From: a virus
Lineage: Duplodnaviria > Heunggongvirae > Uroviricota > Caudoviricetes
Virus record (IMG/VR): IMGVR_UViG_2832576359_000003
Location: 26,348-90,347 of that record
Length of the DNA: 64,000 nt
Direction: 5' to 3' (one strand)
The notes under the pieces are model-generated. The model had not been told where the DNA came from, made no database searches, and worked only from the letters and a program-made list of their open reading frames with translations. The translations under genes and the position numbers were made by a program. This document shows, piece by piece, positions 25,601 to 44,396 of the stretch. Numbering within the stretch: the stretch's first letter is position 1; every line of letters starts with the position of its first letter.

Positions 25601-25604
25601 GTTT

Positions 25605-25683
25605 CGCTGGGTAGCTCAAGCGGTAGAGCGTTCTCTCTCCAGAGAGGGGAAGGTTGGTGGTTCAAGTCCATCCCTGGCGGCCA
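25605..25683 (+). tRNA. tRNA-like gene, anticodon arm irregular
   Basis: Canonical D-arm TAGCTCAAGCGGTAGAGC and T-arm GGTGG-TTCAAGT-CCATC. Acceptor has two G-U pairs. There are 3-4 extra nt around the anticodon arm, so the anticodon is ambiguous. Confidence 0.35.
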
Positions 25684-25915
25684 GCGGTTCCTTGTTGTGC
25701 TTCGGTGCGGTGCCAGCCATAACATCGGCTGGGTGGAGGGTCGGGGCCGCTACCCCGACCCCTCATTTACCCATCGAAGAATGTGCATGAATTGCAACTA
25801 ACGCCCAAGCATGCTCGTCTCTCGGCGAGCGCTTCGCGGTGGTTGCGCAATGGTTGGGTGGCCGGGGCGATATCCCTTTGTGTCCGCGCGCAAACCGCGC
25901 CTCGGCTGCTCAAAC

Positions 25916-26001
25916 CCTCTGGTCTGGATTTGCTCGCTGACGTTCTCTAAGGACCCGCTCGTTCGCTGGAGCGTCGGAGATAGAGTCCAGACCAGAGGGT
26001 G
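25916..26001. ncRNA. Structured element: 14-bp perfect inverted repeat stem-loop
   Basis: CCCTCTGGTCTGGA at 25916 and TCCAGACCAGAGGG at 25988 flank a 58-nt loop that has internal pairing potential. Lies between tRNA-like genes. Confidence 0.3.
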
Positions 26002-26019
26002 AGGGGCCGCACCCTAGCA

Positions 26020-26119
26020 GCAGCCGTAGCTCAGTCAGGTAGAGCACCCCGTCGAGGGGGAGACTGGAATTCCAGGCACGCGGCGCCGTGTGGCACGGGT
26101 TCAAATCCCGTCGGCTGCT
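26020..26119 (+). tRNA. Long tRNA-like element (about 100 nt) with extended 11-bp terminal stem and insertion
   Basis: D-arm GTAGCTCAGTCAGGTAGAGC and T-arm ACGGG-TTCAAAT-CCCGT. Terminal stem AGCAGCAGCCG/CGGCTGCTGCT. About 45-nt insert containing the palindrome CTGGAATTCCAG. Class II or intron-like, anticodon unassigned. Confidence 0.3.
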
Positions 26120-26556: not shown

Positions 26557-26590
26557 TAAAGCCCCGAATTTCGGGGCTTTTTTTTATGCT
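26557..26590. terminator. Bidirectional rho-independent terminator
   Basis: AAAGCCCCGAAatttCGGGGCTTTTTTTTTAT. Confidence 0.7.
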
Positions 26591-26793
26591 GCAGCGGTCT
26601 TGCGCGCGCGAGGCGGATAGATCCGCTTGATGCGGATGCCGGCGGCGCGCCGCGCGGCCGCGATCGTCCGATAATCCGGATTCTTGTACATCGCCTGGGG
26701 CGTGAGCCCGGCCAGGCGCGCGGCGCGGTATCCAGTGCAGCCCCCGCGCACGAGCTCGAGCGCGGTGATCATGCGATCGCTGATCGTCTTCAT
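26584..26793 (-). CDS. Small HTH DNA-binding protein
   Basis: ITALELVRGGCTGYRAARLAGLTPQAMYKN is HTH-like. Last gene of the leftward accessory block. Confidence 0.4.
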   Translation of the reverse strand: MKTISDRMITALELVRGGCTGYRAARLAGLTPQAMYKNPDYRTIAAARRAAGIRIKRIYPPRARKTAAA

Positions 26794-26800
26794 TGCGGTC

Positions 26801-27379
26801 CTATAGATGCGGGGTAAAGCAGATCGGCAGCCGATTATCGGTGCCCTTGGTCAGCGGCATGGTCGCCGGCAGGTTGAAGTTCGCGTCGAATGCCCACCAC
26901 AGCTTGTAACCATACTTCGCGCCGGCCGCGTCTGTATACGCGAAATAGCGGCCGTCGATCGTGTGCGCCTTCAGCAGGGTGAGCGTCGCGCCGTCGTGCT
27001 CGAGCGTGTCGATCACCCACTCCGTCGGGTCGTACGCGATGCCGAGCGGCCAATAGCAAAAGCCATATGCCGGGTTGCGCCACAGCCAGCGTACGCGCAG
27101 CACATACAGGTTGAAGCCCGTCGGCGTGCCCGTGCCGCTGTAGTACCAGCCGGTGGCGTTCAGGATCGACTGCCAGCGCGTCAGCGTGGTCGGCACGACG
27201 AAATAGAGGCCTTGCCAGCCGGCGTCGATCGGTGCGTCTTCCGTCTCGAACCATACGAGCCAATTCGGGAGATAGCCGTTCGACTGCACGAACAACGCGA
27301 GCCCCGGCGCGAGGAGGCACGCGAGTCCCGTGAAAATCAGATTGAGCAGCGTCGCGCCGGCGTAGCGAAGATATTTCAT
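26801..27379 (-). CDS. Hypothetical membrane protein (Trp/Tyr-rich)
   Basis: N-terminal TM (ATLLNLIFTGLACLLAPGLALFV). Start placed at MKYLRYAG. Confidence 0.4.
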   Translation of the reverse strand: MKYLRYAGATLLNLIFTGLACLLAPGLALFVQSNGYLPNWLVWFETEDAPIDAGWQGLYFVVPTTLTRWQSILNATGWYYSGTGTPTGFNLYVLRVRWLWRNPAYGFCYWPLGIAYDPTEWVIDTLEHDGATLTLLKAHTIDGRYFAYTDAAGAKYGYKLWWAFDANFNLPATMPLTKGTDNRLPICFTPHL

Positions 27380-27429
27380 GGTGAGGTCCGATATCGAAGG
27401 CGGCACGTCGCCGCACGTCCATCGTGTCG

Positions 27430-27765
27430 TCACGCCTCAGCCGATGAAACCGGCGCTCGGCGCGTGCGCAACCATTCCTCAGCATTGGCCGGGCTCCCGA
27501 GCAAGCCGGTCGCGCGGCGCCGCGCGTTCATGGCGCCACATTGGCGCCACGTGATCTCGACGGCACCCGCGGCGATCGCGGCCGCGCGCTTCGACAACGC
27601 GATGTCGTAGTGGCTGCCGCTGGTCTTCTCTGGCGACTGCCACCACCGGCGAGCGACGCCGATCTGCGCGGCCATCGCGTGCAGCTCGGCGTCCGTGTCG
27701 GCGATCATGTGGCACATGATCATGCGGCCGAACTTCGCGCGCATGTCGTCGACGTAGACGGTCAT
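27430..27765 (-). CDS. DUF4031-like protein
   Basis: MTVYVDDMRAKFGRMIMCHMIADTDAELHAMAAQIGV...SHYDIAL fits the DUF4031 pattern. Confidence 0.45.
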   Translation of the reverse strand: MTVYVDDMRAKFGRMIMCHMIADTDAELHAMAAQIGVARRWWQSPEKTSGSHYDIALSKRAAAIAAGAVEITWRQCGAMNARRRATGLLGSPANAEEWLRTRRAPVSSAEA

Positions 27766-28868
27766 GGCAGCACCGAGTCGACGGACAGATCGGGATGCGG
27801 AAATCCATCGTGCGTCACACCATCGAGCAAACGGCCGGCCGCGATCTTGCCGACGCGCGCGCTCATGGCGCCGTCGTCGAACGTGTGCCACGCGGGGTTT
27901 TGCGGGCCTGTGGGGGCTCCCTCGGCGAACGATAGGGTCAAGGTGTCACCGTCGCGCTCGGCGGGCATCCACTCGCCCCATTGCTTGAACAGGAACGGAA
28001 CGCCGGCCGCCGCGCATTGGTCGCGCAGCGCGCGGGCCCAATCGCGATGCATAGGCCGCGCGTGCGCGCCGCTCTCACCGCCGACGATGACCCAATCGAT
28101 CAGCTTCTTCTCGCTGTCGAAGATGTAGCCTGCGTCGCTCTCGAAGGATCGATGGCTCCCGCACTTCGGGCACGAGGGCTTTGCAGATTGATCGTCTGCA
28201 CCGCATGCGCTGCAGCGATCTGCGGCCCCGAATGGCTCGCCGCACGATCCGCATCCATCCGGGCCGGCGTCGTTATAGCTTCCGTGGAAACTGCAGTCTG
28301 CGCAGGTATACGGATCAAGCCATTTCAGAAGATCGATGGCCCCGAGCATCGGCTCGATCGAAAGGAAGCGCACGGGCGCCGGCGTCGCGATCAGCTTCGG
28401 GATGTCGCGATCGGCCTCTTCCTGATTGCATATCGTCGCGCCGAGCCAGACGTTTTCGGGCAGCCATCCCGGGATCTGCGACACCATCATCGGAACGTTG
28501 CCGATGCGCTTCGTCAGCAGCAGCCAATCGAGGTTAGGCGTGTCGCGGATGAGCACGAACAAGTCGGCGCGCCACTGCGGATCGACGGCGTTGTCAAATA
28601 CGTCGGCGAGCGAAGCACAGAAGACGCGCCGCCGGCGCCCGTGCTCGGCGAAGAACGCCTCATGCTGGCGGTTCCACTTCTCCGGTTGCTTCCATGATGC
28701 CGCCGACGTGTGGCGACGTTCAGCGCGGGCACCCCATGTGACCCCGAGCGCGCGCGCCGGCGTGCTGACTTCCGCGTAGCAGTGGTCGCACGCGGGCGAG
28801 ACCTTCGTGCATCCGATCCACGGATTGAAGGTCGCGTCAGTCCATTCGATTTTGCTGGTTTCGGCCAT
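27762..28868 (-). CDS. Phage Gp37/Gp68-family protein (DUF5131)
   Basis: N-terminal TSKIEWTDATFNPWIGCTKVSPACDHCYA signature. Several CxxC clusters in the middle. Confidence 0.55.
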   Translation of the reverse strand: MAETSKIEWTDATFNPWIGCTKVSPACDHCYAEVSTPARALGVTWGARAERRHTSAASWKQPEKWNRQHEAFFAEHGRRRRVFCASLADVFDNAVDPQWRADLFVLIRDTPNLDWLLLTKRIGNVPMMVSQIPGWLPENVWLGATICNQEEADRDIPKLIATPAPVRFLSIEPMLGAIDLLKWLDPYTCADCSFHGSYNDAGPDGCGSCGEPFGAADRCSACGADDQSAKPSCPKCGSHRSFESDAGYIFDSEKKLIDWVIVGGESGAHARPMHRDWARALRDQCAAAGVPFLFKQWGEWMPAERDGDTLTLSFAEGAPTGPQNPAWHTFDDGAMSARVGKIAAGRLLDGVTHDGFPHPDLSVDSVLP

Positions 28869-28877
28869 GCTTGTTCA

Positions 28878-29384
28878 CTAGTCCATGTGTTGGTTCGGAA
28901 AGGCCGCGCACGGGCCCTCGTGTCCACTCTTGCGCTGGCATTGCCATCCTGCTTCGGCCTTGTCGCACGAGCCGTCGTCGACCTCGATCTGCGTGTTTGT
29001 CTGTCGAGCGCGCGCGACGGCAGCAAGTTCCTCGATGACGGCCGAGGCCGCGGTGAAGTCATTCATGCGGCCAGAGTGATCGCGCGCCCATTCCGGCACG
29101 CCGTCGCGCCACTGACCGTGCGCGCGCAGATGGAGCCATTCGGCGTAGCGCGGGGTATCGCTCGCCACATCATCGGCTTCAGGGGAGGCGCGCCGGTTCC
29201 ACGCCGCGGTAAGACCGTCGAGCGTCGAATGGATCATTCCGCACTCACAGCCAGGACATGCGATCGTGAAGCTGCCTGGATGTGGCGGCAGGTCGGACCA
29301 GTGGTGCGGGTGTGGCGGATGTTCTTCGATCGTTTGCTCGGACCCGCAGAACGGGCATCGCAACAGGTTCCGTTGAGTGGTCAT
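28878..29384 (-). CDS. Zn-ribbon protein, possibly Lar-like restriction alleviation
   Basis: N-terminal LLRCPFCGSEQ and a later CPGCECG cluster. Confidence 0.3.
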   Translation of the reverse strand: MTTQRNLLRCPFCGSEQTIEEHPPHPHHWSDLPPHPGSFTIACPGCECGMIHSTLDGLTAAWNRRASPEADDVASDTPRYAEWLHLRAHGQWRDGVPEWARDHSGRMNDFTAASAVIEELAAVARARQTNTQIEVDDGSCDKAEAGWQCQRKSGHEGPCAAFPNQHMD

Positions 29385-29556
29385 GTCGGCTCCCCGGCGG
29401 CGCGGTCTGCCGCATCCTTCAGCGTGTGGTAAACCTCCTGCTTATGAAGCAAGTAGCGGGAGGCTTTCTTGAGTTCTAGCGCGGCATCTTGATATCTGCG
29501 CTCGGCCGCACGCAGATCACTCTCGGCCTCACGCAGCATGCGTTCATTGAAGTCTT

Positions 29557-31344
29557 TCACGATTCACCCCCGGCGGCGCGGTCGATGGCGAGCATACGGT
29601 CCATCTGTGCCCGGACGAGCTTCGCGGCGTCTCGATTCTTGGCCGTGATGATGATGTAGTCGCCGTCTGTCCCGACGCTTTTAACCGGCGCATCGAAGCC
29701 GCGCTTAGGCGTAACGCTCGCAGGTTGAGCGGCGAGGATGTGCGTGACTACTGCGCCGTCGTGATTCGCCGCGCACTGCAATGCGTCGGCCTCGTTGATG
29801 AATACGCGATGCCAAGTCTGTTCGGCTTCGCCGGGCCATTCGACGTACCACGCCTCTTTCTGATCGCTCGTCAGCCCCACAGCGGCAGCGGGCTCGCTCG
29901 GCGCAGCACGCAGTTCAGCCGACACGAGTGCATGAAGCACGTCCACGACATTCTCGCGGCTGGTTCGATTTTTGGCTGCGTCGCTCATGTGTTCGTAGAC
30001 GTGATCCGGTAACGGCGCGCAAGGCGTATCGGTGCCTGTTGCATTGCAGGTTGGGCAGGTGGGCGCTTCCGTAGATAGGGCGGCGCGGGCCTGCCAGCCG
30101 TCCCAATGAGAATTTGTCCCGGGCCACGCATAGCCGTCCTTTTCTCGAGTCAGGAGAAATTCCAAACCGGCGTATCGCGTAACAGCCCATGCCTCGAATG
30201 CGCCACGCTCGCATGCAGACTGATCGACCATATCGGTTTCCTCGGGCTCGCTCGGCGCAGCGGGGGCGACGGTTGAAGCGGCGACGGATTTTGCATGCTG
30301 GCGAATATGGGCGCCCGCAATAATCGACTCATACGCGTAGTCTCCCCACTGACCGGGACATCCCTTCCTGTTCAGCTTGGTGAGCACGTAGTCCGCGATG
30401 AACGTCGCGTCGGCGTCGCTGGGCGCTGCACTCGCCACTACGGGGGCGCCAGTAGCTTGTTTGCGCGAAGGCGGATAGCCGGGCTTCATGCCGCGAATGA
30501 CGCGCGCATCCTCCCGCATGCCCCAGTTCTGTTCCATCTCGACCGCAGCGGCCTCAAGCAGATTATTGAGGTCGGCCGCCTGCGCATCTTCCGCCACTAC
30601 GGGGGCGACGGGAGCGGCGTCTGTGTCAACGCTTTCGCCGAGCGCGCGGCGGATCGCGCTGAATCCTGCATCGGTTGCGGCCTCGTCATCGTCCTCGACC
30701 GCATCCATGTCGTTCAGCGTATCGCCCAGATGGTTCATCGCGGCGTAGATGGCAAGCAGGTCCGCGCGCGATACGAGCACGGCGTCGGCCGGCCCCGTTG
30801 CATCTGCCCCCCGCTCCCCCTCAACAGCGGCGCACTCGGCCGGTATATCAGGGCTTGCGTTGGTCAAACTCGAAACAAGTCGAACATCGATGTGCGAGGC
30901 GTATCTGGCATTGCACATATGCAGATGAACGGCGTGGGCGTCCCATCCAATCGGGCTCACGACCCGCTTGAACCACTTCCCGCGACCGTCATACACGTCC
31001 CACAGCAGTCCAACGCCGTCATCCCACGTCGCCAAGGGCTTTTCATCTGCCCCCTCAACAGCATCGAGCCGCTCGCCCATTTCAGATAGCAGCTGCTCGA
31101 CGTCGGGCACGTTACGCGCATAGACCTCCTGTCCGCTTCCGTCGCCTGGCACGACACGCAGCAGGATTTTTCGCACGTCGCAATCGGCCGGGATCTGGGA
31201 TTTAACAGCATGGAGCAGGTCGCTAATTACCTCGCCGGCGTTGTTCGGCGTATCACGCGAGGCGATCACTCGGCACAATTCTCCGATTGTCCGGCCGCCG
31301 TAGTAGATTTTGTCGGTCATGTCTTTATCTCGCTTGTGCCCCAT
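29557..31344 (-). CDS. Large hypothetical protein (595 aa)
   Basis: Long high-GC3 ORF. CPTCNATGTDTPC and HLHMCNARYASH motifs. No family recognised. Confidence 0.45.
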   Translation of the reverse strand: MGHKRDKDMTDKIYYGGRTIGELCRVIASRDTPNNAGEVISDLLHAVKSQIPADCDVRKILLRVVPGDGSGQEVYARNVPDVEQLLSEMGERLDAVEGADEKPLATWDDGVGLLWDVYDGRGKWFKRVVSPIGWDAHAVHLHMCNARYASHIDVRLVSSLTNASPDIPAECAAVEGERGADATGPADAVLVSRADLLAIYAAMNHLGDTLNDMDAVEDDDEAATDAGFSAIRRALGESVDTDAAPVAPVVAEDAQAADLNNLLEAAAVEMEQNWGMREDARVIRGMKPGYPPSRKQATGAPVVASAAPSDADATFIADYVLTKLNRKGCPGQWGDYAYESIIAGAHIRQHAKSVAASTVAPAAPSEPEETDMVDQSACERGAFEAWAVTRYAGLEFLLTREKDGYAWPGTNSHWDGWQARAALSTEAPTCPTCNATGTDTPCAPLPDHVYEHMSDAAKNRTSRENVVDVLHALVSAELRAAPSEPAAAVGLTSDQKEAWYVEWPGEAEQTWHRVFINEADALQCAANHDGAVVTHILAAQPASVTPKRGFDAPVKSVGTDGDYIIITAKNRDAAKLVRAQMDRMLAIDRAAGGES

Positions 31345-31528
31345 TTAACGCCGTGCACGACAAATTTGACTTCGTTGATCTTGATAAGGTGCAGGTCACG
31401 ATTCATACCGCGCAGCTTGGTTATGCCTTCGCGCACGGCTTGTTGGGCGAGGGCGTCGGTATTCCCTTTATCGCCCCACGTGTCGACGGTTAATTCAACC
31501 TCGGCAACGATTCGAACGGTAGTGCTCA
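31317..31528 (-). CDS. Small hypothetical protein (70 aa)
   Basis: Internal-Met start MSTTVRIVAEV of the longer ORF. Overlaps the upstream gene by 28 nt. Confidence 0.3.
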
Positions 31529-31531
31529 TGT

Positions 31532-32578
31532 TCAGTCCTTGGCGGGTTGAGCGGGCTGCGGTGCGGCGAGGAGTGCATCGCGCGCGTCTTTCTCGATGCA
31601 ATAGAGTTGCAACAGCTCGTCGACGACTGCGGTATCGCCGGCATACCAGCGCGATCCCAGTTCGGTCATGTGGTCTTTGAACTGGCGCAGCATCTCGGCT
31701 GTGCCGGTCTCCTGATGTCCATGCTTCAGCGCGCGCTGCGCGGCCCCGAACATGCCGGAATAGTCGACGCGCATACCCTTGTGGTCCTCGGCCAGCAGCG
31801 GGATGCGCGTCGGCGCTTCCGCTTGCTTGGGGGCGGCGCGCAAACCCATCGGCAACGCTGCGTCGGAAATCGACTTGCCAAGCGACCACAGGAACATGCA
31901 GAAATTCGCAACGTCTCGGGGATCGCCTTTTTCGACGTGCTCCCGAAGCATGATCGATAGCTCAGTCGGGTCGCATTGCTCCCATCCTTCGCGTCCTTTC
32001 GCGCGCGCCTCCGAGAGCTTGTCCTTCAATGCGCAGGCGAAACGATCCACAGCAACGTCATCGCTATGTGCCTCTTGCTTGGGGGCGGCAGCTTGGGGTG
32101 CGGCGTAGACGATGCGGGCCAAGTCGGCGCGCAGGCCCTTTGCTCGGTCATATTCCGCACGATCAACGTCCCGCCACTGATCGGCAATGAAGCCCGTTTG
32201 ATAGATCGGCTCGCTCGCCTGCTGCGCATCCCACGACAATTCGAACTGCGTCTTGATTTCGAACGTCGCGAAACCCTTGCTCGCCGCGTCTGCCTCTTCG
32301 TACTTCGGCCGGAAAATGAGGCAATCGGAGCCGTCGGGATACTTGCCCGTCAGCTTGAATCCGGACTGCTTCAGCCCGGCGCCTGTGGGGACATGTGGCG
32401 GGACAGCGTCGCGGCGCTCGCTGATCGACTCGTGCTCGCTGAGCAGCTCTTCGATGCGCTTGCACGCATCGAATGTGGCGGCATCGAATAAGGCGTTCCC
32501 TGTCTTCGCGCGGATTGATGGGAGGTGCCGGGCGATCTTTGCTGCCAGCGACCGATCGTTAGACGTCATGTCGTTCAT
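31532..32578 (-). CDS. Hypothetical protein (348 aa)
   Basis: Long ORF with coding GC3 bias, stop 4 nt from the next start. No motif recognised. Confidence 0.45.
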   Translation of the reverse strand: MNDMTSNDRSLAAKIARHLPSIRAKTGNALFDAATFDACKRIEELLSEHESISERRDAVPPHVPTGAGLKQSGFKLTGKYPDGSDCLIFRPKYEEADAASKGFATFEIKTQFELSWDAQQASEPIYQTGFIADQWRDVDRAEYDRAKGLRADLARIVYAAPQAAAPKQEAHSDDVAVDRFACALKDKLSEARAKGREGWEQCDPTELSIMLREHVEKGDPRDVANFCMFLWSLGKSISDAALPMGLRAAPKQAEAPTRIPLLAEDHKGMRVDYSGMFGAAQRALKHGHQETGTAEMLRQFKDHMTELGSRWYAGDTAVVDELLQLYCIEKDARDALLAAPQPAQPAKD

Positions 32579-33666
32579 GCGGCGTTCCGTGCTTCGTTAT
32601 TGATGGGGATCACGCGATTGGGCTTGCTGTTCCAACCCTTGCACTCATCGGCCGTGAACTTGCCGGCTTTACTGCTGTCGCGCGTGTAACCGCAGAATCC
32701 CGCGCAGTGGTACATCTCGTGCTCGTCGTGCCACACGTGAAAGAGGGGCATCTCTTTCTGGAAAAGGATGTCGCGTAGCGTGCACGCACGCTCGAAGTTC
32801 ATAGTCGAAACAGCCGTCGCGAGCTCGGCTTCGAGACGCTTTCGACGGTCGCGCCCGTTGCGCTTGACGCGCAGGTTATCTGGACACTTCGTGAACAGTT
32901 CGAAGCTTGCGATGTTTCGCAAGCCGAATTTGTCGGTGACGACCCACCACATGTTGTTGATGTTGTAGTAGGCGGTCCCTGCCTGTATACGGCCCTTGTA
33001 GTCAGCGAACCAGACTCGTTGTCCGTGCACGACGCGTGCGCGTTCCGCGGACCGGTGGTTGTATTCGACTTCGTCGCCGCGCGGGCGCCCCGTCGCTTTG
33101 TCGTAATGCCGTGAGGCCTCGTAATGGGCCTGGATCCACTCAAGCGCCGTTACGCCGTTAAATCCGCGATTGCGCTCGGGCTCCGTGAACGTGTATCCAG
33201 TGAAGACGTTGCAGAGATAATCGCGAATGCGGCGCCGCGTGCGCTCCATCTCCAAACGCAGGAGGTAGGGCATCGCCTGTTCCTTGTTGGATTCATAGCG
33301 GCCCTCGTGATCGGGGCGCGTCGGAGTGTTGACGCTCTGGAACATTTCGAACTCGATGTGCCGGCCGGTCAGCGACAAGTCGGCCTTGAGATCGCCTTTC
33401 ACGCAGAAACGTTGGCGTTGAGCTGCCCAACGCGCGACATTGCCCCCGTAACGCTTAACGTCGAGTTCGTTGATCGGCGGCATCGAGCACGTCCAGCCGA
33501 GCCGGTTTAACGTCTGAATGATTCGCGCGAACACCTCGTGTTTGAATTGCCGCTCCCAGCGCTCGGAGGCGTCATGGCCCCCGCTGCCGCCTTCTTCCCA
33601 GACGTGCAGCGCGGCGTCATGGAACACGATGCGTCCCGAGCGGTCGATTTGTGCTTTCGTGAGACT
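32575..33666 (-). CDS. Hypothetical protein (364 aa), Trp/Arg-rich
   Basis: Start at MSLTKAQIDRSG. C-terminal Cys/His cluster HVWHDEHEMYHCAGFCGY. No family recognised. Confidence 0.45.
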   Translation of the reverse strand, partial: SLTKAQIDRSGRIVFHDAALHVWEEGGSGGHDASERWERQFKHEVFARIIQTLNRLGWTCSMPPINELDVKRYGGNVARWAAQRQRFCVKGDLKADLSLTGRHIEFEMFQSVNTPTRPDHEGRYESNKEQAMPYLLRLEMERTRRRIRDYLCNVFTGYTFTEPERNRGFNGVTALEWIQAHYEASRHYDKATGRPRGDEVEYNHRSAERARVVHGQRVWFADYKGRIQAGTAYYNINNMWWVVTDKFGLRNIASFELFTKCPDNLRVKRNGRDRRKRLEAELATAVSTMNFERACTLRDILFQKEMPLFHVWHDEHEMYHCAGFCGYTRDSSKAGKFTADECKGWNSKPNRVIPINNEARNAA

Positions 33667-34166
33667 CATGCTTTCACCTGAACGGCTGTTGCTGCATGGG
33701 CGGCCTTGAACATGCCGCGCGTGAGCGTGATGTCGACCCCTTCGCGCAGCGTCGCGCGCAGGAGTGCTGTGTCGTCGGGACGATCCGACGTGAGGGATGC
33801 GCCGATGCGCGCGAATGGTTCGAGCGCGGTTCGCGCCACACGGCCGATCTGCGCGTCGCGCGCGGCGGCTCGTGCATACATGGGCAAGTCGTGCCATGAG
33901 TGATGCTGAAGGTGGCCGGCGCCTCCCTTCAACGCGTCGGCGATCTGCGAGAGGATGGAAGCGAGGCTGTCGGAAACTTGTCGCGCAAGTTCGGATTCGT
34001 CGATCTCGATCGGCTCAGCGCTGCCGTCGAGCACGCCGCGCAGGAAGTCGCGATAGACCGCGTTGAGCGCCGACCGGCGTACCTGCACGTATTCCTGCCG
34101 TTCGGTGAACGCGAGCGCCTGGCTGATGCTCACGATGTTGGCGACCTGTTCGCTGGTGAGGATCAT
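33666..34166 (-). CDS. Hypothetical protein (166 aa)
   Basis: Translationally coupled ORF in the accessory block. Confidence 0.4.
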   Translation of the reverse strand: MILTSEQVANIVSISQALAFTERQEYVQVRRSALNAVYRDFLRGVLDGSAEPIEIDESELARQVSDSLASILSQIADALKGGAGHLQHHSWHDLPMYARAAARDAQIGRVARTALEPFARIGASLTSDRPDDTALLRATLREGVDITLTRGMFKAAHAATAVQVKA

Positions 34167-34939
34167 GCTGTTGCCTCCTCGCGCGGGGTCAACATGAGGG
34201 CTTTGCTGGCCTCGAACACGGCCGCGCTGCAGTCGCTATACCCGTGACCCGCCAGGATGCCGGCGGCGGCGCTCAGGCGCGTTGTCAGCGGTGTCTCGGC
34301 GTGGCGCTCCGGCGTCGATTCGTTCGCGTGCGTCGCCTCTTCGATTGCCTGGTCGATTTCGTCGAGCATGGCGTCGGCGACGATGCCCGCCAGTTCGCGC
34401 TGCTGCATCCGATCGTCGCCGCCGGAGTCCCACCGATCCTTGATGGCGGCGACTAACGCGCGTGCTGCCTTGAGCCCGGGCACTTTCCCTTCGCCGGCGA
34501 TATACGGGGCGAGCGCTTGCTCGAGCGCGACCGCGTCCTCGTCGCCCGGCGCGAGGGTGATCCGGCCCGCGGCCATTTTGGCGGTGCCCTTAAGGCGCGC
34601 GACGGTGAAGCTCACCGCGGAGCGCAGCCGATCGCCGATCGCGGCCGTGCGTCCGTTGAGCCAGAACGGGGCGAGCCAATGGTCGAGGCTCGCCGGCGGA
34701 TTGGTGCCCAGGTAGCCAAACGAGATCGCGCTATCGATCGCGTCTTTGACTAGGTCGCGCTGCGTCTGCTTGATAGTGGTTTCGGCCGTTGACAGGCGCA
34801 GCGCGAGCTGGTTGAGCGCGTTGTGCCCCGCTTGAGTGGGATCGAAATGCAGCGTGATCGACTTGCTTTCGATGTCGTGCGGGCAGGCGATCGCGCGCAT
34901 GTAGAGCGGTCCGGATTCGGGTTTCGTCTTGTCGGTCAT
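34163..34939 (-). CDS. Hypothetical protein (258 aa)
   Basis: Translationally coupled ORF in the accessory block. Confidence 0.4.
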   Translation of the reverse strand: MTDKTKPESGPLYMRAIACPHDIESKSITLHFDPTQAGHNALNQLALRLSTAETTIKQTQRDLVKDAIDSAISFGYLGTNPPASLDHWLAPFWLNGRTAAIGDRLRSAVSFTVARLKGTAKMAAGRITLAPGDEDAVALEQALAPYIAGEGKVPGLKAARALVAAIKDRWDSGGDDRMQQRELAGIVADAMLDEIDQAIEEATHANESTPERHAETPLTTRLSAAAGILAGHGYSDCSAAVFEASKALMLTPREEATA

Positions 34940-34950
34940 GGTGGTGGGTG

Positions 34951-35187
34951 TCAGTGTTGGCGGATCCAGAGGCCTGCGACCATCTGAAGGCGCCCGGAGC
35001 GCCGCTCGCGGAAAATGAGGCGGTCGACGATGCGGTTTGCGGTGCCGTCATGGCGCGCGAATCCGTAGCGCTCCGCGCTGTCGACGATGTCGGCCATGCG
35101 GAATTGCTCGAGCGGCACGCGCTTGAGAATCGTGTCGAGCACCTCGTCCATCTGCTCGGGCTCGAGCTGCGAGTTCAGGTTCATCAT
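34951..35187 (-). CDS. Small hypothetical protein (78 aa)
   Basis: Short ORF between the SPFH gene and the 258-aa gene. Confidence 0.3.
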   Translation of the reverse strand: MMNLNSQLEPEQMDEVLDTILKRVPLEQFRMADIVDSAERYGFARHDGTANRIVDRLIFRERRSGRLQMVAGLWIRQH

Positions 35188-35233
35188 TCGGTGTTCCGTC
35201 AGGCTTCGATCGTCGGTTGTCCAGGGCTGCTGA

Positions 35234-36094
35234 CTACTTCGTAGCGCCGACCTGGATCATCGGGATCGCGTTGCCCATCATGTAGGTCGGGTAGTGGCCG
35301 TCCCACTTCTCGATCTTCATCTTCTCGATCAACGACGGGTTCGCCGCGAGCGACTGGCCGAGGATGTCGTTGGCCTTCGCGGTGTTTTGCGCGACCTGCA
35401 GCGCGGCTTCGCTCTCGACGACGCGCTTTTGCGCTTCCCACTTCGTTTGCGCGATCTCGTTCTCGACGCGAAGGGCGTTTTGCTGCGCGGTGATCTTTGC
35501 CTCGATCGCGTCGTTGAACTGCTTGCTGAATTGGAAGTCGACGATGTTCACCGCGCTGACGTTGACGCCGATGTTCTTGAAGCGATTCAGCAGGGCCTCG
35601 CGCACTTCCTGGCTGACCTGATCGCGGCGCTGAATCAGATCGGTTGCCTCGTAGCGCGCTGCGACTGCTTTGACGGTGTCGTGCACAGCGGGATCCATGA
35701 TCGTCGGCCACGGGTCGCTGCCAAGATTGGCGTAAATCGCCGCCGCGGCGGCCGGCAGAATGTTGAAGTTGACCGCGACCTTCATGTCGACCTGCTGGAG
35801 ATCCTTCGACGAGCCGGCGACATCCGATTCGGACTTGTGAACGCCGACATAGACGGTGTGCATCGTCTGCGAGATCGGCATGCGGAAATGGATGCCAGGC
35901 GCGTATGTTTTTTCAGACGGCGCGCCGAATGTGGTCATCACTCCCACGTAGCCGGCCGGAACAGTCGCGACGGGCATGAGGGCCCAAAGTGCGCCCAGGG
36001 CGACCACTGATAAAACGCAAATGATGGCGAGACGAAGCTGGCTCATGCTGCTCGTGCTGGATTCGTCGCGGTTAGGTTGGTTGGTCGATACCAT
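35234..36094 (-). CDS. SPFH / band-7 (prohibitin/HflC-like) membrane protein
   Basis: N-terminal TM then the SPFH core (GYVGVMTTFGAPSEKTYAPGIHFRMPISQTMHTV...VNFNI) and a coiled-coil tail. Confidence 0.65.
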   Translation of the reverse strand: MVSTNQPNRDESSTSSMSQLRLAIICVLSVVALGALWALMPVATVPAGYVGVMTTFGAPSEKTYAPGIHFRMPISQTMHTVYVGVHKSESDVAGSSKDLQQVDMKVAVNFNILPAAAAAIYANLGSDPWPTIMDPAVHDTVKAVAARYEATDLIQRRDQVSQEVREALLNRFKNIGVNVSAVNIVDFQFSKQFNDAIEAKITAQQNALRVENEIAQTKWEAQKRVVESEAALQVAQNTAKANDILGQSLAANPSLIEKMKIEKWDGHYPTYMMGNAIPMIQVGATK

Positions 36095-36154
36095 CGGGGT
36101 TTCTCCGGCTTTAGTTGAGTGATTGCGCCGCGACGTGCGGCGCTTGGGATTCGG

Positions 36155-38125
36155 TTAAGCGGCCGCGGCAGCACGCAACTCGTGCGCGAAATTAGCGCGG
36201 ATGATTGCGGCGGCGACCGGCGGGCAGACGCTGTTGCCGATCATGCGGACCTGAGCCGACTTGGAAAGGCGCTTGCCGTTGTGCTCGGGGTCGAGCACGT
36301 ACGAATCGGGGAAGCCCTGGGCACGCGCGAGCTCGCGCGGCGTGAGCATGCGCATGCCGATATCGACGATGGCGTAGTCCTCGCCGTGGATCGTCACGAG
36401 ACCGAGCCGGTCTTTCGTCGGGATCGTGTGCATCGGGTCGCGCAGATCCTGATGCTGGCCGCCTTCGCTGTAGTACTTGATCAGGAAGGCGCGCACCTCG
36501 GCGTGATGCAGTCCACCGGCGCTTACCGTGTGGAGCGGCTCGGCGACCGGTTGCGCGCCGCCGTTGTTGCGCAGCTTCACGAGGTGCGACACGGCGATCG
36601 CCGAATCGGCCTTCGCGGTGATTGTGGCAGCGGGCTCGCTCGCGTCGCGCGGCCGAGACTGACCAGCGCGGCCGCCACAGCCGACGATCTGAGCGGTGAC
36701 GAGCGCGTGGTGATCCTGCGTCGTGACCGTGCTCATCGGGTATGCGAGGTCCGCGCCGGGCGTTTCATTACCGCCGTAGTGCTTCGCGAGGAAGGCGGAC
36801 ACGAGGGCGTGCTTCGCGCCGCCCGCGACGACGGTGCCGAGTGGCTTGTCGATACCCGGCGCGCGCGGCGCCTGCCCGGCGCGCTCGCCGTATCCCGTCT
36901 GAATCAGCGTTGCGGCGACGATCTGCTGCTGGCCGCCGCTCGCAGTGATCGTGCTCAGCGGCGCTTTTGCGGATCGACCGGCCTTAACGCCCACGCGTTC
37001 CTTGTTGTGCTGCGCGAGGAATGCAGTAACGAGCGCTTGCTCGCTGCGGTTCGCGCCCGTGACGGTCGCGAGCGGTGCGTCGGCGCGCGCGCCGCGGTCT
37101 GAGCCCTGGTGCGTGACGTGCATCAAGGTCGGCGCGACCATCGCAAGGCTTCCACCGCGCGGATACGCGGTGATCGTGCGCAATGGTTCGCTCCCGCTGT
37201 GGACCGTGTCGCGGCCGTTGTAGTGCGCAATCGGAACGATGAAAGGGTCGGCGCTGTTCACGACGAACTTCATGATGCCGCGCGCGATACGCCGCAGCGT
37301 CGCATCCTTGAGCGGGCGATCGCGCTCGAAGATCGAGGGGCACGGGATCGACCAGTCGATGCATTCGGCCGCGGTGCGGTACGGCGCGAGCGCGCCGCGC
37401 GCGACGGCGTCCGAGTTCGGCGCGCCGTGCGTGGGCGCGGGCCAAACGATCGGAAGCCCATCGCGGCGCGCGAACAGATAGAGGCGCTTGCGAATCGTCG
37501 GCGTGCCGAAGTCGCACGCGCGCAGCACGCGCCATTCGACCTTGTATCCGAGCCCCGCGTAGAGTCGCTCCATCGGGAAGTCGGCGCCGAGCGTCTCGAA
37601 GATCTCGGGCACGTCCGGGTGCTCAGGCGACAGGCCGGACGAGAGCGCATCGACGAACGCGCGGAACGTGCGGCCTTTCTCGGCCTTGATCGGTTGGCCG
37701 TGCTCGTCGACCGGGCCCCAATCCTGGAACTCCTCGACGTTTTCGAGCGCGAGGCAGCGCGGCACCTGGAAGGTCCCCCACTTCAGGGCGATCCAGGCCA
37801 GCCCGCGGATCTTCTGGTCGCGCGGCTTGCCGCCCTTCGCCTTCGAGTGATGCTTGCAATCGGGGCTGAACCAGGCAAGCCCGATCGGCATCTGGTTCGT
37901 GATGAAGCCCGGGTGCACCGCAAAGACGTCTTCGCGATAGTGCCGCGTCGTCGGGTGGTTGGCCGCGTGCATCGCGAGCGCTTCGCCGTCGTGGTTGATG
38001 GCGATATCGACCGGGCGCCCGAAGGCCATCTCAATGCCCGTGCTCGCGCCGCCGCCGCCGGCGAAGTTATCCACGATGAGTTCGTGCCCCAAGTCGAGCT
38101 CGAAACTGATCTCGTCGCGCTTCAT
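36155..38125 (-). CDS. DNA cytosine-5 methyltransferase with 8 tandem ~35-aa repeats in the variable region
   Basis: Motif I DNFAGGGG, PC-like SPDCKHHS, ENV(EEF) motif, C-terminal MIGNSVCPPVAAAI. Repeat unit PLxTITAxG..HALVTAFLAKHYG occurs 8 times between roughly aa 300 and 580. Confidence 0.7.
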   Translation of the reverse strand: MKRDEISFELDLGHELIVDNFAGGGGASTGIEMAFGRPVDIAINHDGEALAMHAANHPTTRHYREDVFAVHPGFITNQMPIGLAWFSPDCKHHSKAKGGKPRDQKIRGLAWIALKWGTFQVPRCLALENVEEFQDWGPVDEHGQPIKAEKGRTFRAFVDALSSGLSPEHPDVPEIFETLGADFPMERLYAGLGYKVEWRVLRACDFGTPTIRKRLYLFARRDGLPIVWPAPTHGAPNSDAVARGALAPYRTAAECIDWSIPCPSIFERDRPLKDATLRRIARGIMKFVVNSADPFIVPIAHYNGRDTVHSGSEPLRTITAYPRGGSLAMVAPTLMHVTHQGSDRGARADAPLATVTGANRSEQALVTAFLAQHNKERVGVKAGRSAKAPLSTITASGGQQQIVAATLIQTGYGERAGQAPRAPGIDKPLGTVVAGGAKHALVSAFLAKHYGGNETPGADLAYPMSTVTTQDHHALVTAQIVGCGGRAGQSRPRDASEPAATITAKADSAIAVSHLVKLRNNGGAQPVAEPLHTVSAGGLHHAEVRAFLIKYYSEGGQHQDLRDPMHTIPTKDRLGLVTIHGEDYAIVDIGMRMLTPRELARAQGFPDSYVLDPEHNGKRLSKSAQVRMIGNSVCPPVAAAIIRANFAHELRAAAAA

Positions 38126-38289
38126 TTATTCGATTCCTTCGATGAAATTGCTTGTTGAGCGACCAGCGCATCCTGCTCGACGCGCTGCCGGCGCCCGAGC
38201 GCGACGTGCTCGTCGAACTCTCGGCGGCTGATGCGGTTGTCGACGAACACGCGCGTCGCGAGGCGCATATCGCCCTTGAAGGCGAACAT
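38122..38289 (-). CDS. Small hypothetical protein
   Basis: 55 aa from MFAFKGD with coding GC3 bias. Start uncertain. Confidence 0.25.
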   Translation of the reverse strand: MFAFKGDMRLATRVFVDNRISRREFDEHVALGRRQRVEQDALVAQQAISSKESNK

Positions 38290-38351
38290 GCGGATCTGGT
38301 CGAGCGCCGAGTCGCGCCCGCGATCGCGTCGGCCGAACTGCGGGGCGCGCG

Positions 38352-38573
38352 TCACGCGTGGCTCCGCGAGCAGCCGGAGCAGCGTGCGTCGCCGGGCGTG
38401 CCGCGCGCGTAGCCGCATTCCTTGCTCATCTGGACGGGCACGATCTCGATGACGGGCAGGCGCGTTTGCATGCGCCCGTGGTCCGCGAGCATCGTTTCCC
38501 ATCCGTTCTGCACGACGATCCTGTCGCGCGGCGCGGGGCGGTTCTGGCAGGCGTACGGGGCGATCGTGCTCAT
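38352..38573 (-). CDS. Small hypothetical protein (73 aa)
   Basis: MSTIAPYACQNRP..., strong GC3 bias. ATGA-coupled to the upstream gene. Confidence 0.3.
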   Translation of the reverse strand: MSTIAPYACQNRPAPRDRIVVQNGWETMLADHGRMQTRLPVIEIVPVQMSKECGYARGTPGDARCSGCSRSHA

Positions 38574-39211
38574 GCGAGGGTCTCCATCAAGCGGCGGAAC
38601 TGCGGCGACGGGTCGGTGCCGAGGCTCTTGAGGAGGATCGCGATCTCGTTCGCGAGCACGACGGTCGGCTCGGGCAGCGGGGTCCAGGCTTCCGGCTGCG
38701 GGCACTCGGCGACGTCCATCGCGTGCGTCACCGTTTCGGCGCTGATCGCGTGCTCGAAGTGCGTCGTCGCCGCGACGGCGAGCGATTCCGCGCTCGGATG
38801 CTTGGACGCCTCGCTGACGACCCAGAGGCAGAGCCGGTGGAATTCACGCGGCGTTAGTTCCTCCGCCGCCCTGGACGCGCTCGATACCGGTCCGGATGCC
38901 GCCGGCGTCGGGCTGCTCTTTGCTGTGAGGGTGGGTCGTTTCTCACTCATTTGCGCTGCTTTCTTCGTGGGTTCGGTGGATGGCGTCGCTGCTTCGGGCG
39001 CCGGGTTCTCGCGCAGGAAACGGCGCATGTGCATGGATGCGAGGTTGTCGCCGGCTGAGTCGCACTTGCCGGTCGCAATCGAAAACGAGCGCTCGACGCC
39101 GTTGGGTGCTCTCAGGACCGCGCACATGCGGTTGGATTCGCGCTGAACGCGCACGACCTCAAGGCCGGCGCGCTCCGCGAGGTGCTTTATGTCGCGTGCT
39201 CGGTTGGTCAT
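38570..39211 (-). CDS. Hypothetical protein (213 aa)
   Basis: Start at MTNRARDIKHLAE. The N-terminal extension of the long ORF is Arg/His-rich non-coding-like sequence and is rejected. Confidence 0.4.
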   Translation of the reverse strand: MTNRARDIKHLAERAGLEVVRVQRESNRMCAVLRAPNGVERSFSIATGKCDSAGDNLASMHMRRFLRENPAPEAATPSTEPTKKAAQMSEKRPTLTAKSSPTPAASGPVSSASRAAEELTPREFHRLCLWVVSEASKHPSAESLAVAATTHFEHAISAETVTHAMDVAECPQPEAWTPLPEPTVVLANEIAILLKSLGTDPSPQFRRLMETLA

Positions 39212-39510
39212 TTCACCGAATCGAGGATGGAGTCGATCTGCTGCATCGGACCGGTGAGGTCGCCGAGCGTGACGGTCGCCCCGGCGATCTGCTCGCGCAG
39301 CCCACGAAACGCGTGGATCAGGTCGGGCAGCTTCGTGTAGAGCGTCGCTTGCGCGAATGCATCCATCTGGCGCACGCGCGGGAATCGTCCGACCGTGATC
39401 GGTCCGTTGATGGTGTCGGCGACGACCGTGATGTCTGCCTCGGTCGTGCGTCCGATGCGATACGGGCCGGGGATGAGGCCCGCGACCTGGTCCTTTGCTT
39501 TGGGCGACAT
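39208..39510 (-). CDS. Hypothetical protein (100 aa)
   Basis: ORF overlapping its neighbours by 4 nt. Confidence 0.35.
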   Translation of the reverse strand: MSPKAKDQVAGLIPGPYRIGRTTEADITVVADTINGPITVGRFPRVRQMDAFAQATLYTKLPDLIHAFRGLREQIAGATVTLGDLTGPMQQIDSILDSVK

Positions 39511-39521
39511 CGTCGTGCTCC

Positions 39522-39872
39522 TCAGCGGGCGTGGGCAAAGGTGCGTTCGAAATCCGCCGTGCGGTGCTGCTCGATGCCCCCGAATGCCGACGGCTGCCGG
39601 CCGAGCGCCGGTGCCGCGTTGCGCGCGCCCTTCGCCGCGTGAGCAATGCGCTTGCTATCCCCCTTGGCTTGCTCAAGCGCCTCGTCGGCCTCGATCTCGG
39701 ACTGCAGGCGTGCAATACGGGCCTCGAGCATGGGCACGCTCGACCGGTAGAACTCGAGTGCGCACTTGTGCTCGACGAGGGTGAAGCGCGCCTCGTGCAG
39801 CTTGAATTTCGACTCGCTACGCGGATCCTTCATCGCGAAAGCCTTGGCAATGCGTTGGAGCAGCTTCTTCAT
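39522..39872 (-). CDS. Hypothetical protein (116 aa)
   Basis: Start at MKKLLQRIAKAF. Helical. Confidence 0.35.
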   Translation of the reverse strand: MKKLLQRIAKAFAMKDPRSESKFKLHEARFTLVEHKCALEFYRSSVPMLEARIARLQSEIEADEALEQAKGDSKRIAHAAKGARNAAPALGRQPSAFGGIEQHRTADFERTFAHAR

Positions 39873-39919
39873 GTCGTTACCTTCTTTGGGAGGGAAGGCC
39901 GCAACCCGCGGCCCGAGGG

Positions 39920-40180
39920 TCAAGCCGTGTGCGTTGCGTGAGCCGCGTGCTGATGCTCGATGTGCTGCGGAGCGCTCGGGGGCGTGAGGCGCGAAATCCC
40001 GAGGACAAAGGAGACGTACCAGATGGCGCCGCAGACCATGCCCGTGCCGAGCATGTAGACGAAGAGGCGCGGGGTCGAAATCGTGTTCTGAGAAGGGTCC
40101 GCGTGCTTGCGGCCCGGCTGATTCTTCTTTTTACGAAGAAATTCGCGCTTGTCTGCGAAGTCGCGTGCGATCGTGTTCAT
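39920..40180 (-). CDS. Small membrane protein (86 aa)
   Basis: One TM segment (LFVYMLGTGMVCGAIWYVSFVLGI). Confidence 0.3.
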   Translation of the reverse strand: MNTIARDFADKREFLRKKKNQPGRKHADPSQNTISTPRLFVYMLGTGMVCGAIWYVSFVLGISRLTPPSAPQHIEHQHAAHATHTA

Positions 40181-40199
40181 GAGCGTCTCCGGTCGCGAC

Positions 40200-40445
40200 T
40201 CAGCAGTACGTCAGGGGGGTGATCAGCTTGATGCGGCCCGCTTCCTGGTGTGCGAGGAAGGACTCTGTCAGGGTCGCTACGTTCTCTGCGAATTCCGCGG
40301 CGTAGCGCTTGTGGCCTGCCTGGATGCAGCTTTCCATGCATTCGATGGTGTTGCCGGTGCGCTTCGCGACGGCGGTCAGCGCAGCCCTTCGGATCTCGTG
40401 CGAGGCCCTTCGGATCTCTACCAGCTTCGTCCCCTGTGTCTCCAT
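40200..40445 (-). CDS. Small hypothetical protein (81 aa), first gene of the leftward block
   Basis: Internal-Met start METQGTKLVEIRRASHEIRRAALTAV of the longer ORF. Divergent from the terminase-small-like gene. Confidence 0.3.
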   Translation of the reverse strand: METQGTKLVEIRRASHEIRRAALTAVAKRTGNTIECMESCIQAGHKRYAAEFAENVATLTESFLAHQEAGRIKLITPLTYC

Positions 40446-40677
40446 CTCTGCCTCGCTTGTGCGTTGAAGTGAGGCAATTGTGAAACTTACGAATCTGCAC
40501 GTCAAGCAGAATGATGCGTTATTCGCAGATTTACGTGATACGCTTGCGCCATATTCTTCGAATAAAGCAAGTAATCGCGCAAAAGCGCCGCCCTCCTGTT
40601 GACGACGTAAACGTCTCGGGGCGTTGTCTTCGTTGTCGTGACGCGATGCTTGAGCACAACGTCTCTCGGGGCCGGTA

Positions 40678-41319
40678 GTGGCGCGCGTATCAATCAGCAA
40701 AGAGCAATGGCGTATCGCGCGGATCCAGTGGGAGGGTGATCCGCTGGTGTCGTACGCCGATATCGCCGAACAACTCACGACTTCGCGCCAGGCGGTCAAG
40801 CAGCACGCCGATCGCAACGGCTGGCAAAAGAAGATCGACGCCGCCGCGGTCGCTGAGAAAGCACACATCGCAGCGGATGCGAAAGTTTCATATGTGCCCG
40901 TGGGAACGCCGGAGCAAGCGCCCTCCGTTTACGTAGAAACCGCTGAAAACGTCGATCTGTCGCGCGCGCCGATGCGTCCCGCGCTGCCGACGCCGGTACC
41001 TGCAGGCACTGACTCGCAAACGGCATCGGTCATGGTCGAGCAGGGCGCCGTCGACATGCGTGCACAGGTGCTCGCGCAGCACCGGACCGAATGGAAGGCC
41101 GTACGCAGCAAGCTCTACAAGCTCTTGAAGGCGGGCGACTCGATGCCCGATGGGGATACCGCGCGCGCGGTAAAGGCCGTCGCCGAGTCGGTGAAGGTGC
41201 TGCAGGAAGGGGAGCGGAAGGCCTACGGCCTGGAGGCGCCCGGCGACCCGCGCAATCCCGGTGCGGGCCGGCCGGCGATCGTGATCAATCGCACGAAGGG
41301 GAAGACGATTGGTCGCTGA
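40678..41319 (+). CDS. Terminase small-subunit-like protein (gpP-like / Terminase_5-type N-terminus)
   Basis: N-terminal ISKEQWRIARIQWEGDPLVSYADIAEQLTTSRQAVKQHADRNGWQKK resembles the HTH start of gpP-like terminase ATPase-subunit proteins. Confidence 0.4.
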   Translation: MARVSISKEQWRIARIQWEGDPLVSYADIAEQLTTSRQAVKQHADRNGWQKKIDAAAVAEKAHIAADAKVSYVPVGTPEQAPSVYVETAENVDLSRAPMRPALPTPVPAGTDSQTASVMVEQGAVDMRAQVLAQHRTEWKAVRSKLYKLLKAGDSMPDGDTARAVKAVAESVKVLQEGERKAYGLEAPGDPRNPGAGRPAIVINRTKGKTIGR

Positions 41320-43278: not shown

Positions 43279-43329
43279 TCGCGCACCGCTGCTCCTTCCG
43301 CGGGCTCTCCCGCTTTTCTGCTGACCTCC

Positions 43330-44394: not shown

Positions 44395-44396
44395 AT

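Follow-up and report, generated by a model that had tools for sequence, protein, structure and literature searches.

A 14-kb leftward gene block in a temperate phage of Pararobbsia silviterrae: probably a mosaic accessory operon with some anti-restriction cargo

Gene content and layout of the block

IMG/VR record IMGVR_UViG_2832576359_000003 derives from a contig of ca. 90 kb, a singleton, that belongs to a temperate phage of Pararobbsia silviterrae. The stretch analysed here, called the window, is 64 kb of this 90-kb contig. Between 26584 and 40445 of the window there is an unbroken run of 22 open reading frames (ORFs), all on the minus strand and named g01–g21, with g06 divided into g06b and g06a (Table 1). 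An earlier note described this 14-kb run as a one-strand block of mostly unknown genes, which it is, and proposed that it was a novel defence or anti-defence locus. The block consists of independently shuffling phage accessory genes and is no discrete new defence system. It is probably the leftward accessory operon of a temperate phage, or phage-plasmid, of ca. 90 kb – a patchwork of independently moving genes from phages and prophages of the Burkholderiales, with some anti-restriction cargo and with products that act separately. If so, the 'dark' 14 kb conceal no defence system but are a typical, though large, phage accessory operon.

By exact-sequence look-up of ten gene models, nine were identified as NCBI proteins in the series RKP44728–RKP44739, all annotated as 'hypothetical protein'; g06a was the only looked-up model whose start departed from the NCBI annotation. 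All nine exactly matched proteins are singleton clusters among ca. 15 billion sequences. Pfam confirmed each of the domains named from the sequence in the earlier note: a C5 methyltransferase with repeats (the repeats are real), an SPFH protein, DUF4031, Gp37/Gp68 (DUF5131), a Lar-like protein and a Trp-rich membrane protein. In PHROGs, unnamed phage families were found for g05, g10 (weakly), g12, the middle of g13, and g18–g20. The NCBIfam search of the block proteins added no new family, and the 19 unknown block proteins, concatenated and searched against PDB sequences, gave no match at E ≤ 5. Five large proteins had been listed as having no recognisable family. This holds for the protein of 166 aa (g11), which had no family in any library used, with no homologue search of g11 made; the protein of 364 aa (g12) belongs to phrog_7674, and those of 348, 595 and 258 aa (g13, g15 and g10) share modules with many other proteins.

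The genes are tightly packed. At ten of the 21 junctions the start and stop codons overlap by 4 bp; g14 and g15 overlap by 28 bp, and the other junctions have gaps of 2–62 bp, so that translational coupling, claimed for the whole block, is plausible for about half of it. The G+C content at third codon positions (GC3) is 0.62–0.76 in g12–g17, compared to 0.82–0.92 in g01–g10 and g19–g21 (0.77–0.92 across all genes outside g12–g17). The lower GC3 of g12–g17 is consistent with a composite origin.

The hairpin that borders the block has a stem of 10 bp with 6 G-C pairs, 3 nt past the stop codon of g21. Its T-run is on the plus strand; on the block's own strand the hairpin is followed only by UUUAAUCC. 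It would therefore be a strong terminator of the convergent tRNA/early-right operon and for the block a weak one at best: the strong terminator proposed as the boundary is a real hairpin, but one that serves its neighbour. At the other end is a divergent gap of 232 bp (40446–40677) with one sigma-70-like match, TTGACG-17-CACAAT, reading leftward from 40505 and ca. 30 nt upstream of g01, which is a candidate promoter for the block. Control by the CI repressor was considered and rejected. The gap has four 8-mers in common with the CI/Cro region, where ca. one is expected, and none longer, and without a longer shared operator-like sequence CI control of the block is not arguable.

Table 1. Features of the block, in its direction of transcription (positions in the window).
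Feature	Position	Strand	Length and assignment	Basis
Candidate promoter	40477..40505	-	sigma-70-type	inferred from a single consensus match
g01	40200..40445	-	81 aa; RKP44739; no family	Pfam, PHROGs, NCBI look-up
g02	39920..40180	-	86 aa; small, one hydrophobic segment; no family	Pfam, NCBI look-up
g03	39522..39872	-	116 aa; basic, helical/coiled-coil by eye; no family	weak DUF1192 match, E 0.018
g04	39208..39510	-	100 aa; no family	Pfam, PHROGs, NCBI look-up
g05	38570..39211	-	213 aa; phrog_25702	3e-40
g06b	38352..38573	-	73 aa; four Cys; no family	
g06a	38122..38289	-	small ORF; annotated gene in NCBI, start uncertain	
g07	36155..38125	-	656 aa; orphan C5 cytosine DNA methyltransferase; phrog_116	1.7e-101
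g08	35234..36094	-	286 aa; membrane-anchored SPFH/Band-7 protein; phrog_200	Band_7, 7.5e-34
g09	34951..35187	-	78 aa; no family	Pfam, NCBI look-up
g10	34163..34939	-	258 aa; acidic; residues 60–100 a shuffled module, otherwise ORFan	phrog_16138, 1.5e-7, weak
g11	33666..34166	-	166 aa	no family in any library used
g12	32575..33669	-	364 aa; phrog_7674	8e-127, full length
g13	31532..32578	-	348 aa; modular	PHROGs match in middle; module searches
g14	31317..31529	-	70 aa; no family; low GC3 (0.62)	
g15	29557..31344	-	595 aa, or 587 in NCBI; acidic; chimera with five or more modules	
g16	29381..29560	-	59 aa; helical by eye; GTG start; overlaps at both ends	
g17	28878..29384	-	168 aa; Lar-like zinc ribbon (1–66) and shuffled module (64–124); phrog_599	
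g18	27762..28868	-	368 aa; DUF5131 (Gp37/Gp68) with inserted double zinc ribbon	
g19	27430..27765	-	111 aa; DUF4031; phrog_4887	DUF4031, 1.2e-25
g20	26801..27379	-	192 aa; Trp-rich membrane protein; DUF7338; phrog_2143	DUF7338, 3.1e-26
g21	26584..26793	-	69 aa; very basic (isoelectric point 11.4); HTH-like by eye	
Hairpin	26558..26580	.	10 bp, G+C-rich	T-run on plus strand

Counter-restriction genes and known defence systems

The best-supported view of the recognisable cargo is that it serves counter-restriction and DNA modification, through g07, g17 and the radical-SAM protein g18. The g07 gene (METHYLTRANSFERASE) encodes a protein that matches the Pfam family DNA_methylase (3.6e-23, 83 bits against a cut-off of 22) and has motif I (FAGGGG) at 21, motif IV (SPDC) at 88, motif VI (ENV) at 128, motif IX (RMLTPRE) at 592 and motif X (GNSV) at 630, and by these motifs it is classed as a C5 cytosine DNA methyltransferase. 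Motif IV is an SPDC variant (SPDCxH[FH]SKA) that is conserved across ten homologues. Between motifs VIII and IX there are eight tandem repeats of ca. 36 aa of the form P-x-x-T-[IV]-T...ALV, starting at residues 314, 351, 389, 428, 463, 498, 530 and 564, and the eighth is the canonical end of a target-recognising domain (TRD) just before motif IX. Complete homologues in other phages are 567–833 aa long, with 4–7 repeat units. No restriction endonuclease or nuclease family was found by Pfam, PHROGs, PADLOC or NCBIfam in the neighbourhood g05–g10. With no endonuclease alongside, g07 is an orphan methyltransferase and not half of a Type II restriction-modification pair.

Multispecific methyltransferases of Bacillus phages have tandem target-recognising domains, and this is how the SPR/SPbeta, phi3T and rho11s enzymes are organised. 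Like g07, these C5 enzymes are orphan phage enzymes with tandem TRD-sized units (ca. 36–40 aa) between motifs VIII and IX. In unit size and position the g07 repeats resemble them, and multispecific self-methylation is the most economical reading of g07 by this analogy, although the repeats could instead be structural. There are differences: g07 belongs to another sequence family (phrog_116), has the SPDC variant of motif IV, and has eight repeats, with 4–7 in its homologues; its multispecificity is putative. On that reading g07 is a candidate broad anti-restriction 'master key'.

The second counter-restriction gene is g17. Its N-terminal zinc ribbon matches phrog_599 and the Pfam family Lar_restr_allev (PF14354; 2.2e-7, 31.4 bits against a cut-off of 28.6), and its closest known counterpart is Lar, the restriction alleviation protein of the Rac prophage. 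Unlike Lar, g17 has extra modules in its 168 aa, and with the NCBIfam Lar model (TIGR03655) it scores 23.4 bits, under the cut-off of 39.6; a Lar activity of g17 is putative.

The g18 protein matches PF07505 (DUF5131) at 4.7e-87 over profile positions 2–243 of 243 and has an N-terminal Cys triad, C20-x7-C28-x2-C31 (GCTKVSPACDHCYA). DUF5131 is listed as a subgroup of the radical-SAM superfamily (PMC9477430), and on this profile match and triad g18 is assigned as a radical-SAM DUF5131 protein. Genes of the g18 type recur within 10 kb of C5 methyltransferases and of g12/g13-type genes in other phages.

Three proteins of the block are membrane proteins – g02, g08 and g20. For g08, NCBIfam gave weak HflK/HflC matches, far under the cut-off, and PADLOC gave one marginal match, to CARF3 (E 0.0031). 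SPFH proteins had been said to recur in anti-phage contexts. SPFH was considered as a recognised defence marker and rejected, with no support found in PADLOC or in the literature consulted.

The 22 block proteins were compared with PADLOC-DB v2. No complete system was found. The main matches were those of g07, to generic methyltransferase components, and of g18, to PDC-M41B (5.9e-51) and PDC-M30B (8.8e-50), and 19 of the 22 proteins had no match at E ≤ 0.01. While g18 resembles the B components of PDC-M30 and PDC-M41 at ca. 1e-50, the partner (A) components, and any nuclease or other effector, were not found among the 22 proteins by PADLOC; Pfam and NCBIfam added no nuclease or effector among them. 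As the A components are missing from the block, no PDC system is called. Nowhere were the block genes found to be co-conserved as a set.

These results bear on whether the block could be an island for defence or superinfection exclusion, expressed from the prophage or plasmid and transcribed in the lysogen from its own promoter, in which SPFH, DUF7338 and small membrane proteins exclude phages and the methyltransferase and DUF5131 protein are part of a restriction-modification-like or PDC-type system. The block runs opposite to the operons on either side and starts in an intergenic region of its own, three of its products are membrane proteins, g18 matches the candidate components PDC-M41B and PDC-M30B, and g07 matches the methyltransferases of several systems, all of which would suit such an island. 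No partner component, nuclease or effector was found in it, however; its genes are not co-conserved and have relatives in the regions of other phages that decide between lytic and lysogenic growth (described below); and in the literature consulted no link was found between SPFH proteins and phage defence. We consider such an island very unlikely.

Modular proteins, the g12 family and their relatives in other phages

The proteins g10, g13, g15 and g17 share parts of their sequences with many other proteins. An exhaustive HMMER search with g15 against 1.84 billion representatives at E ≤ 1e-3 gave 269 matches. All 150 of those listed were partial, each to one of five segments: 46–100, 95–177, 178–250, 296–365 and 463–566. 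The matching proteins are 59–767 aa long, with the segment in varying positions, and among the matches listed there was no full-length relative of g15. A word-indexed search gave 14 matches, all local besides g15 itself, with the best alignment covering 8–14% of the query, and the IMG/VR search found no relatives of g15.

The same pattern was found for g13, which had 829 matches. Besides g13 itself, all 119 listed were local and within residues 106–348, mostly over a central module (ca. 165–250) or a C-terminal module (ca. 255–340). The central module, with the motif DVANFCMFLW, was found in proteins of 75–766 aa. Some foreign proteins combine g13 modules with modules of g10 (60–100), g15 (51–112) and g17 (1–71 and 64–124), and in some of these the partner domains are Lar, HTH_31 or DUF3850/ASCH. 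No Pfam families were found for the modules of g10, g13 and g15, although a precomputed annotation assigns PF26207 to g15, and Pfam on 99 module-sharing proteins identified only seven families, each in 1–3 members. Neither the IMG/VR scan nor the GTDB genome scan found relatives of g10. The module-sharing proteins number several hundred, and those named are from Burkholderiales. Such piecemeal sharing makes g10, g13, g15 and g17 beads-on-a-string chimeras of 40–100-aa modules, drawn from a large and mostly unannotated pool. This pool of shuffled mini-domains is a lead that current domain libraries do not cover.

Outside the block, a 62-aa ORF at 46743–46931 (+) has a module 41% identical to P0308, a g15 module-sharing protein, so the module pool reaches past the block.

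Polyvalent proteins are similar to these chimeras in having many small domains in each polypeptide, recombined in various combinations in mobile elements (PMC5512222). Unlike them, the block chimeras are much smaller (168–595 aa) and have modules that are almost all missing from Pfam. Neither Lar nor MazG nor ASCH appears in the paper that describes polyvalent proteins (Iyer et al. 2017). None of the four chimeras has two or more recognised conflict domains in one polypeptide, and only g17 has one (Lar). A bolder proposal is that g10, g13, g15 and g17 belong to a very large unannotated combinatorial family, mainly of Burkholderiales phages and prophages, with over 800 g13-matching proteins and with Lar among its modules. 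Each module would bind or inhibit a different component of host immunity or physiology, as in a compact analogue of the polyvalent proteins with a new repertoire, and g12 would be a further counter-defence adaptor. This proposal is distinctly doubtful.

The g12 protein belongs to a family with over 690 homologues in proteobacterial genomes and metagenomes. The family, phrog_7674, is labelled 'UvrB/UvrC motif-containing protein' and is widespread in phages and prophages. In the predicted structure, a KA1-like alpha/beta domain and a Tudor/SH3-like barrel are accompanied by a UVR hairpin and, at the C terminus, a small beta domain; the UVR helical hairpin was also weakly detected by Pfam, and no enzyme fold or nuclease fold was found in the model. 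Clusters of Cys and His in this protein and in g15 had been read as suggestive of nucleic-acid enzymes. For g12 the model does not bear this out, and the invariant and near-invariant columns of an alignment of 36 sequences do not include the C-terminal His and Cys residues. The loci of the 36 IMG/VR relatives of g12 have no other block genes, except that a g07- or g18-type gene is occasionally present within 10 kb. A conserved partner of g12 was sought by neighbour clustering and rejected, as no conserved family emerged. With over 690 members and a confident model, the family is one of the leads from the block, together with the eight-repeat methyltransferase and the module pool.

The neighbourhoods of g12- and g13-type genes were surveyed at 67 IMG/VR loci by Pfam annotation of the two largest same-strand neighbours. 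Integrases were the most frequent (13), followed by C5 methyltransferases (8), reverse transcriptases (6), and RdgC, DUF5131, YqaJ and S24 repressors (4 each); ParB-HTH proteins, N6/N4 methyltransferases, RecT and others had lower counts. This places the relatives of g12 and g13 in the int/exo/cI early-left region of temperate phages. Homologues of g05, none of which were found in the IMG/VR scan, are the terminal leftward gene in Bcep22-like Burkholderia podophages.

Reverse transcriptases made up 6 of the 133 large neighbours in this survey, and a bAvd-like neighbour was found once. Diversity-generating retroelements may therefore often share the variable region with g12/g13-type genes.

With relatives in the int/exo/cI regions, the block could instead be composed of ordinary early genes for adjusting host physiology and the choice between lysis and lysogeny, as do those of the lambda exo-xis region with the modular Ea22, and have no defence or counter-defence role past self-methylation. 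The SPFH proteins HflK and HflC modulate FtsH, which degrades lambda CII, and g08 has its weak HflK/HflC matches. One module-sharing protein has a weak match to Ead/Ea22 (PF13935, E 3e-4), and Ea22 promotes lysogeny and has several domains and a diverse sequence (PMC7093339, PMC10834534). But this Ea22 match is a single weak one, the block lies outside the CI-adjacent leftward operon at 8.5–18.5 kb and has no operator-like sequence in common with the CI/Cro region, and the methyltransferase and Lar point to restriction evasion. A block of such genes alone is unlikely.

A third alternative is a DNA modification pathway shared with the rightward arm of the genome, in which the DUF5131 and DUF4031 proteins, possibly a MazG-like module of g13, and the methyltransferases jointly build a modified base. 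Consistent with this, DUF5131 is in the radical-SAM superfamily and recurs near C5 methyltransferases and g12/g13-type genes; the g13 module profile matches PDB 2p06 (AF_0060), with a fold we take to be MazG-like, at E 0.0019 over the motif DVANFCM[FY]LW; and the other arm has a dGTP_diPhyd_N domain and two N6/N4 methyltransferases. However, the domain searches gave no known hypermodification enzyme, such as PurZ, DpdA/queuosine-type enzymes, thymidylate-synthase-like hydroxymethylases or glycosyltransferases, and in other phages these genes do not lie side by side as a set. We regard a joint pathway as highly improbable. All three alternatives are less supported than a mosaic accessory operon.

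The closest known analogue in kind is the lambdoid early accessory region (exo-xis, b-region or nin-type). Like the block, these regions of temperate phages have tightly packed, small to mid-sized, mostly uncharacterised genes on one strand, and the relatives of g12 and g13 adjoin integrase, YqaJ/RecT, RdgC and S24 repressor genes in other phages. Both include sequence-diverse multi-domain proteins (PMC7093339, PMC10834534). Compared to the lambdoid regions, the block is large (14 kb), has its own divergent start region, and has the early-right operon and tRNA cluster between it and the CI-adjacent leftward operon. It has no sequence homology to lambda genes, apart from the weak Ea22 match in a module-sharing protein.

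As a mosaic accessory operon, the block would be transcribed from a start in the divergent gap, at the candidate promoter, through the 22 ORFs to the hairpin just past g21, and its products would work independently of one another, on the phage DNA and the host. The eight TRD-like units of g07 would methylate several sequence contexts and so pre-empt Type II restriction; the Lar-like zinc ribbon of g17 would alleviate Type I restriction; and g08, g02 and g20 would act at the membrane. The architecture of g10, g13, g15 and g17 would fit binders or inhibitors of variable host targets. We infer the timing of expression in this scheme, and likewise an anti-defence activity of the uncharacterised proteins.

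Several observations weigh against a mosaic accessory operon. The promoter is a single consensus match, and the number of sigma-70-like sites in the region is no better than chance (2 found, 2.7 expected from shuffled sequence); the divergent promoter of the earlier note comes down to the gap with one candidate site. Just two or three of the 22 genes are annotated for restriction evasion, and one of these, g17, is under the NCBIfam cut-off for Lar. Morons expressed from the prophage classically have this kind of layout too, a block antisense to its surroundings with a promoter of its own, and the three membrane proteins would suit superinfection exclusion. No related phage was found for a comparison of the whole block.

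As for the proposed defence or anti-defence locus, the part that survives is the presence of counter-defence-type genes (g07 and g17), with others outside the block. The idea of one locus or system does not fit the missing PADLOC partners, the lack of co-conservation and the varying GC3. The earlier note had named ordinary phage early genes as the outcome contrary to its proposal, and with relatives in the int/exo/cI region this is nearly what was found.

The replicon and genes outside the block

The replicon has no close relative among GenBank phages, PLSDB plasmids or IMG/VR. A megablast of the block against phages and plasmids gave at most short methyltransferase and DUF5131 matches, and the divergent neighbouring gene at 40678–41319 had only matches of 28% identity in IMG/VR. 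Baseplate J, tail fibre and lysozyme genes are found at 0.7–6.7 kb of the window. The CI-adjacent leftward early operon (8.5–18.5 kb) encodes a PD-(D/E)XK nuclease, RecT, an AAA_23 ATPase and a single-stranded DNA-binding protein, and a CI-type repressor (HTH and S24) and a Cro-like HTH protein are encoded at 18656–19823. The rightward early-right operon terminates with a tRNA cluster at 25.0–26.1 kb, and a second rightward arm extends from 40.7 kb to a GpA-type terminase at 57.2–59.8 kb.

A plasmid-type TrfA, a ParA-type ATPase and a HigB toxin with a HigA-like partner are encoded at 8537–12776 (−). One replicon thus has both phage genes (baseplate J, tail fibre, lysozyme and GpA terminase) and plasmid genes (TrfA, ParA and HigB). 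No integrase was seen among the ORFs scanned in the 64-kb window. With TrfA, ParA and HigB alongside CI/Cro and no integrase seen in the parts scanned, the replicon is probably a phage-plasmid. It is a previously unseen candidate of this kind and a possible source of new anti-defence proteins for Burkholderia-group bacteria.

The genome overall is rich in counter-defence-type genes. Two N6/N4-type DNA methyltransferases, followed by a dGTP_diPhyd_N domain protein, are encoded at 42028–46743 (+), giving the phage three methyltransferases with g07; the second of them has, by eye, a ParB-like N-terminus. The rightward arm also carries a metallophosphatase. A 376-aa protein encoded at 50622–51752 (+) has a Phage_gp49_66 domain and, at its C terminus, a domain like Tad2 (Thoeris anti-defence 2; E 1.7e-20). 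Just beyond the terminase, at 60339–62908 (−), a NAMPT-like phosphoribosyltransferase gene adjoins a phosphoribosyl pyrophosphate (PRPP) synthetase gene. Phage NAD+ salvage pairs of the NAMPT/PRPP synthetase kind have been linked to protection against defences that deplete NAD. The window showed no NMNAT.

Within the tRNA cluster (25030–26119, +), ARAGORN called Gly-CCC, Met-CAT, Glu-TTC and Trp-CCA genes. The Glu tRNA gene has no Rfam call at the gathering score, and Rfam identified an extra tRNA of 100 nt at 26020–26119, missed by ARAGORN, with a possible insertion or intron.

Two further proteins of the rightward arm are an 864-aa protein encoded just upstream of the terminase (53325–55919, +), which has no Pfam match, and a 354-aa protein (43330–44394, +) with a TPR match, what looks by eye like a hydrophobic segment, and a long tail rich in Ser and Asp. 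A near-direct repeat (40610–40672, +), AACGTCTCGGGGC and AACGTCTCTCGGGGC at a spacing of 48 bp, lies immediately before the rightward gene at 40678 and could be a regulatory site for the rightward arm.

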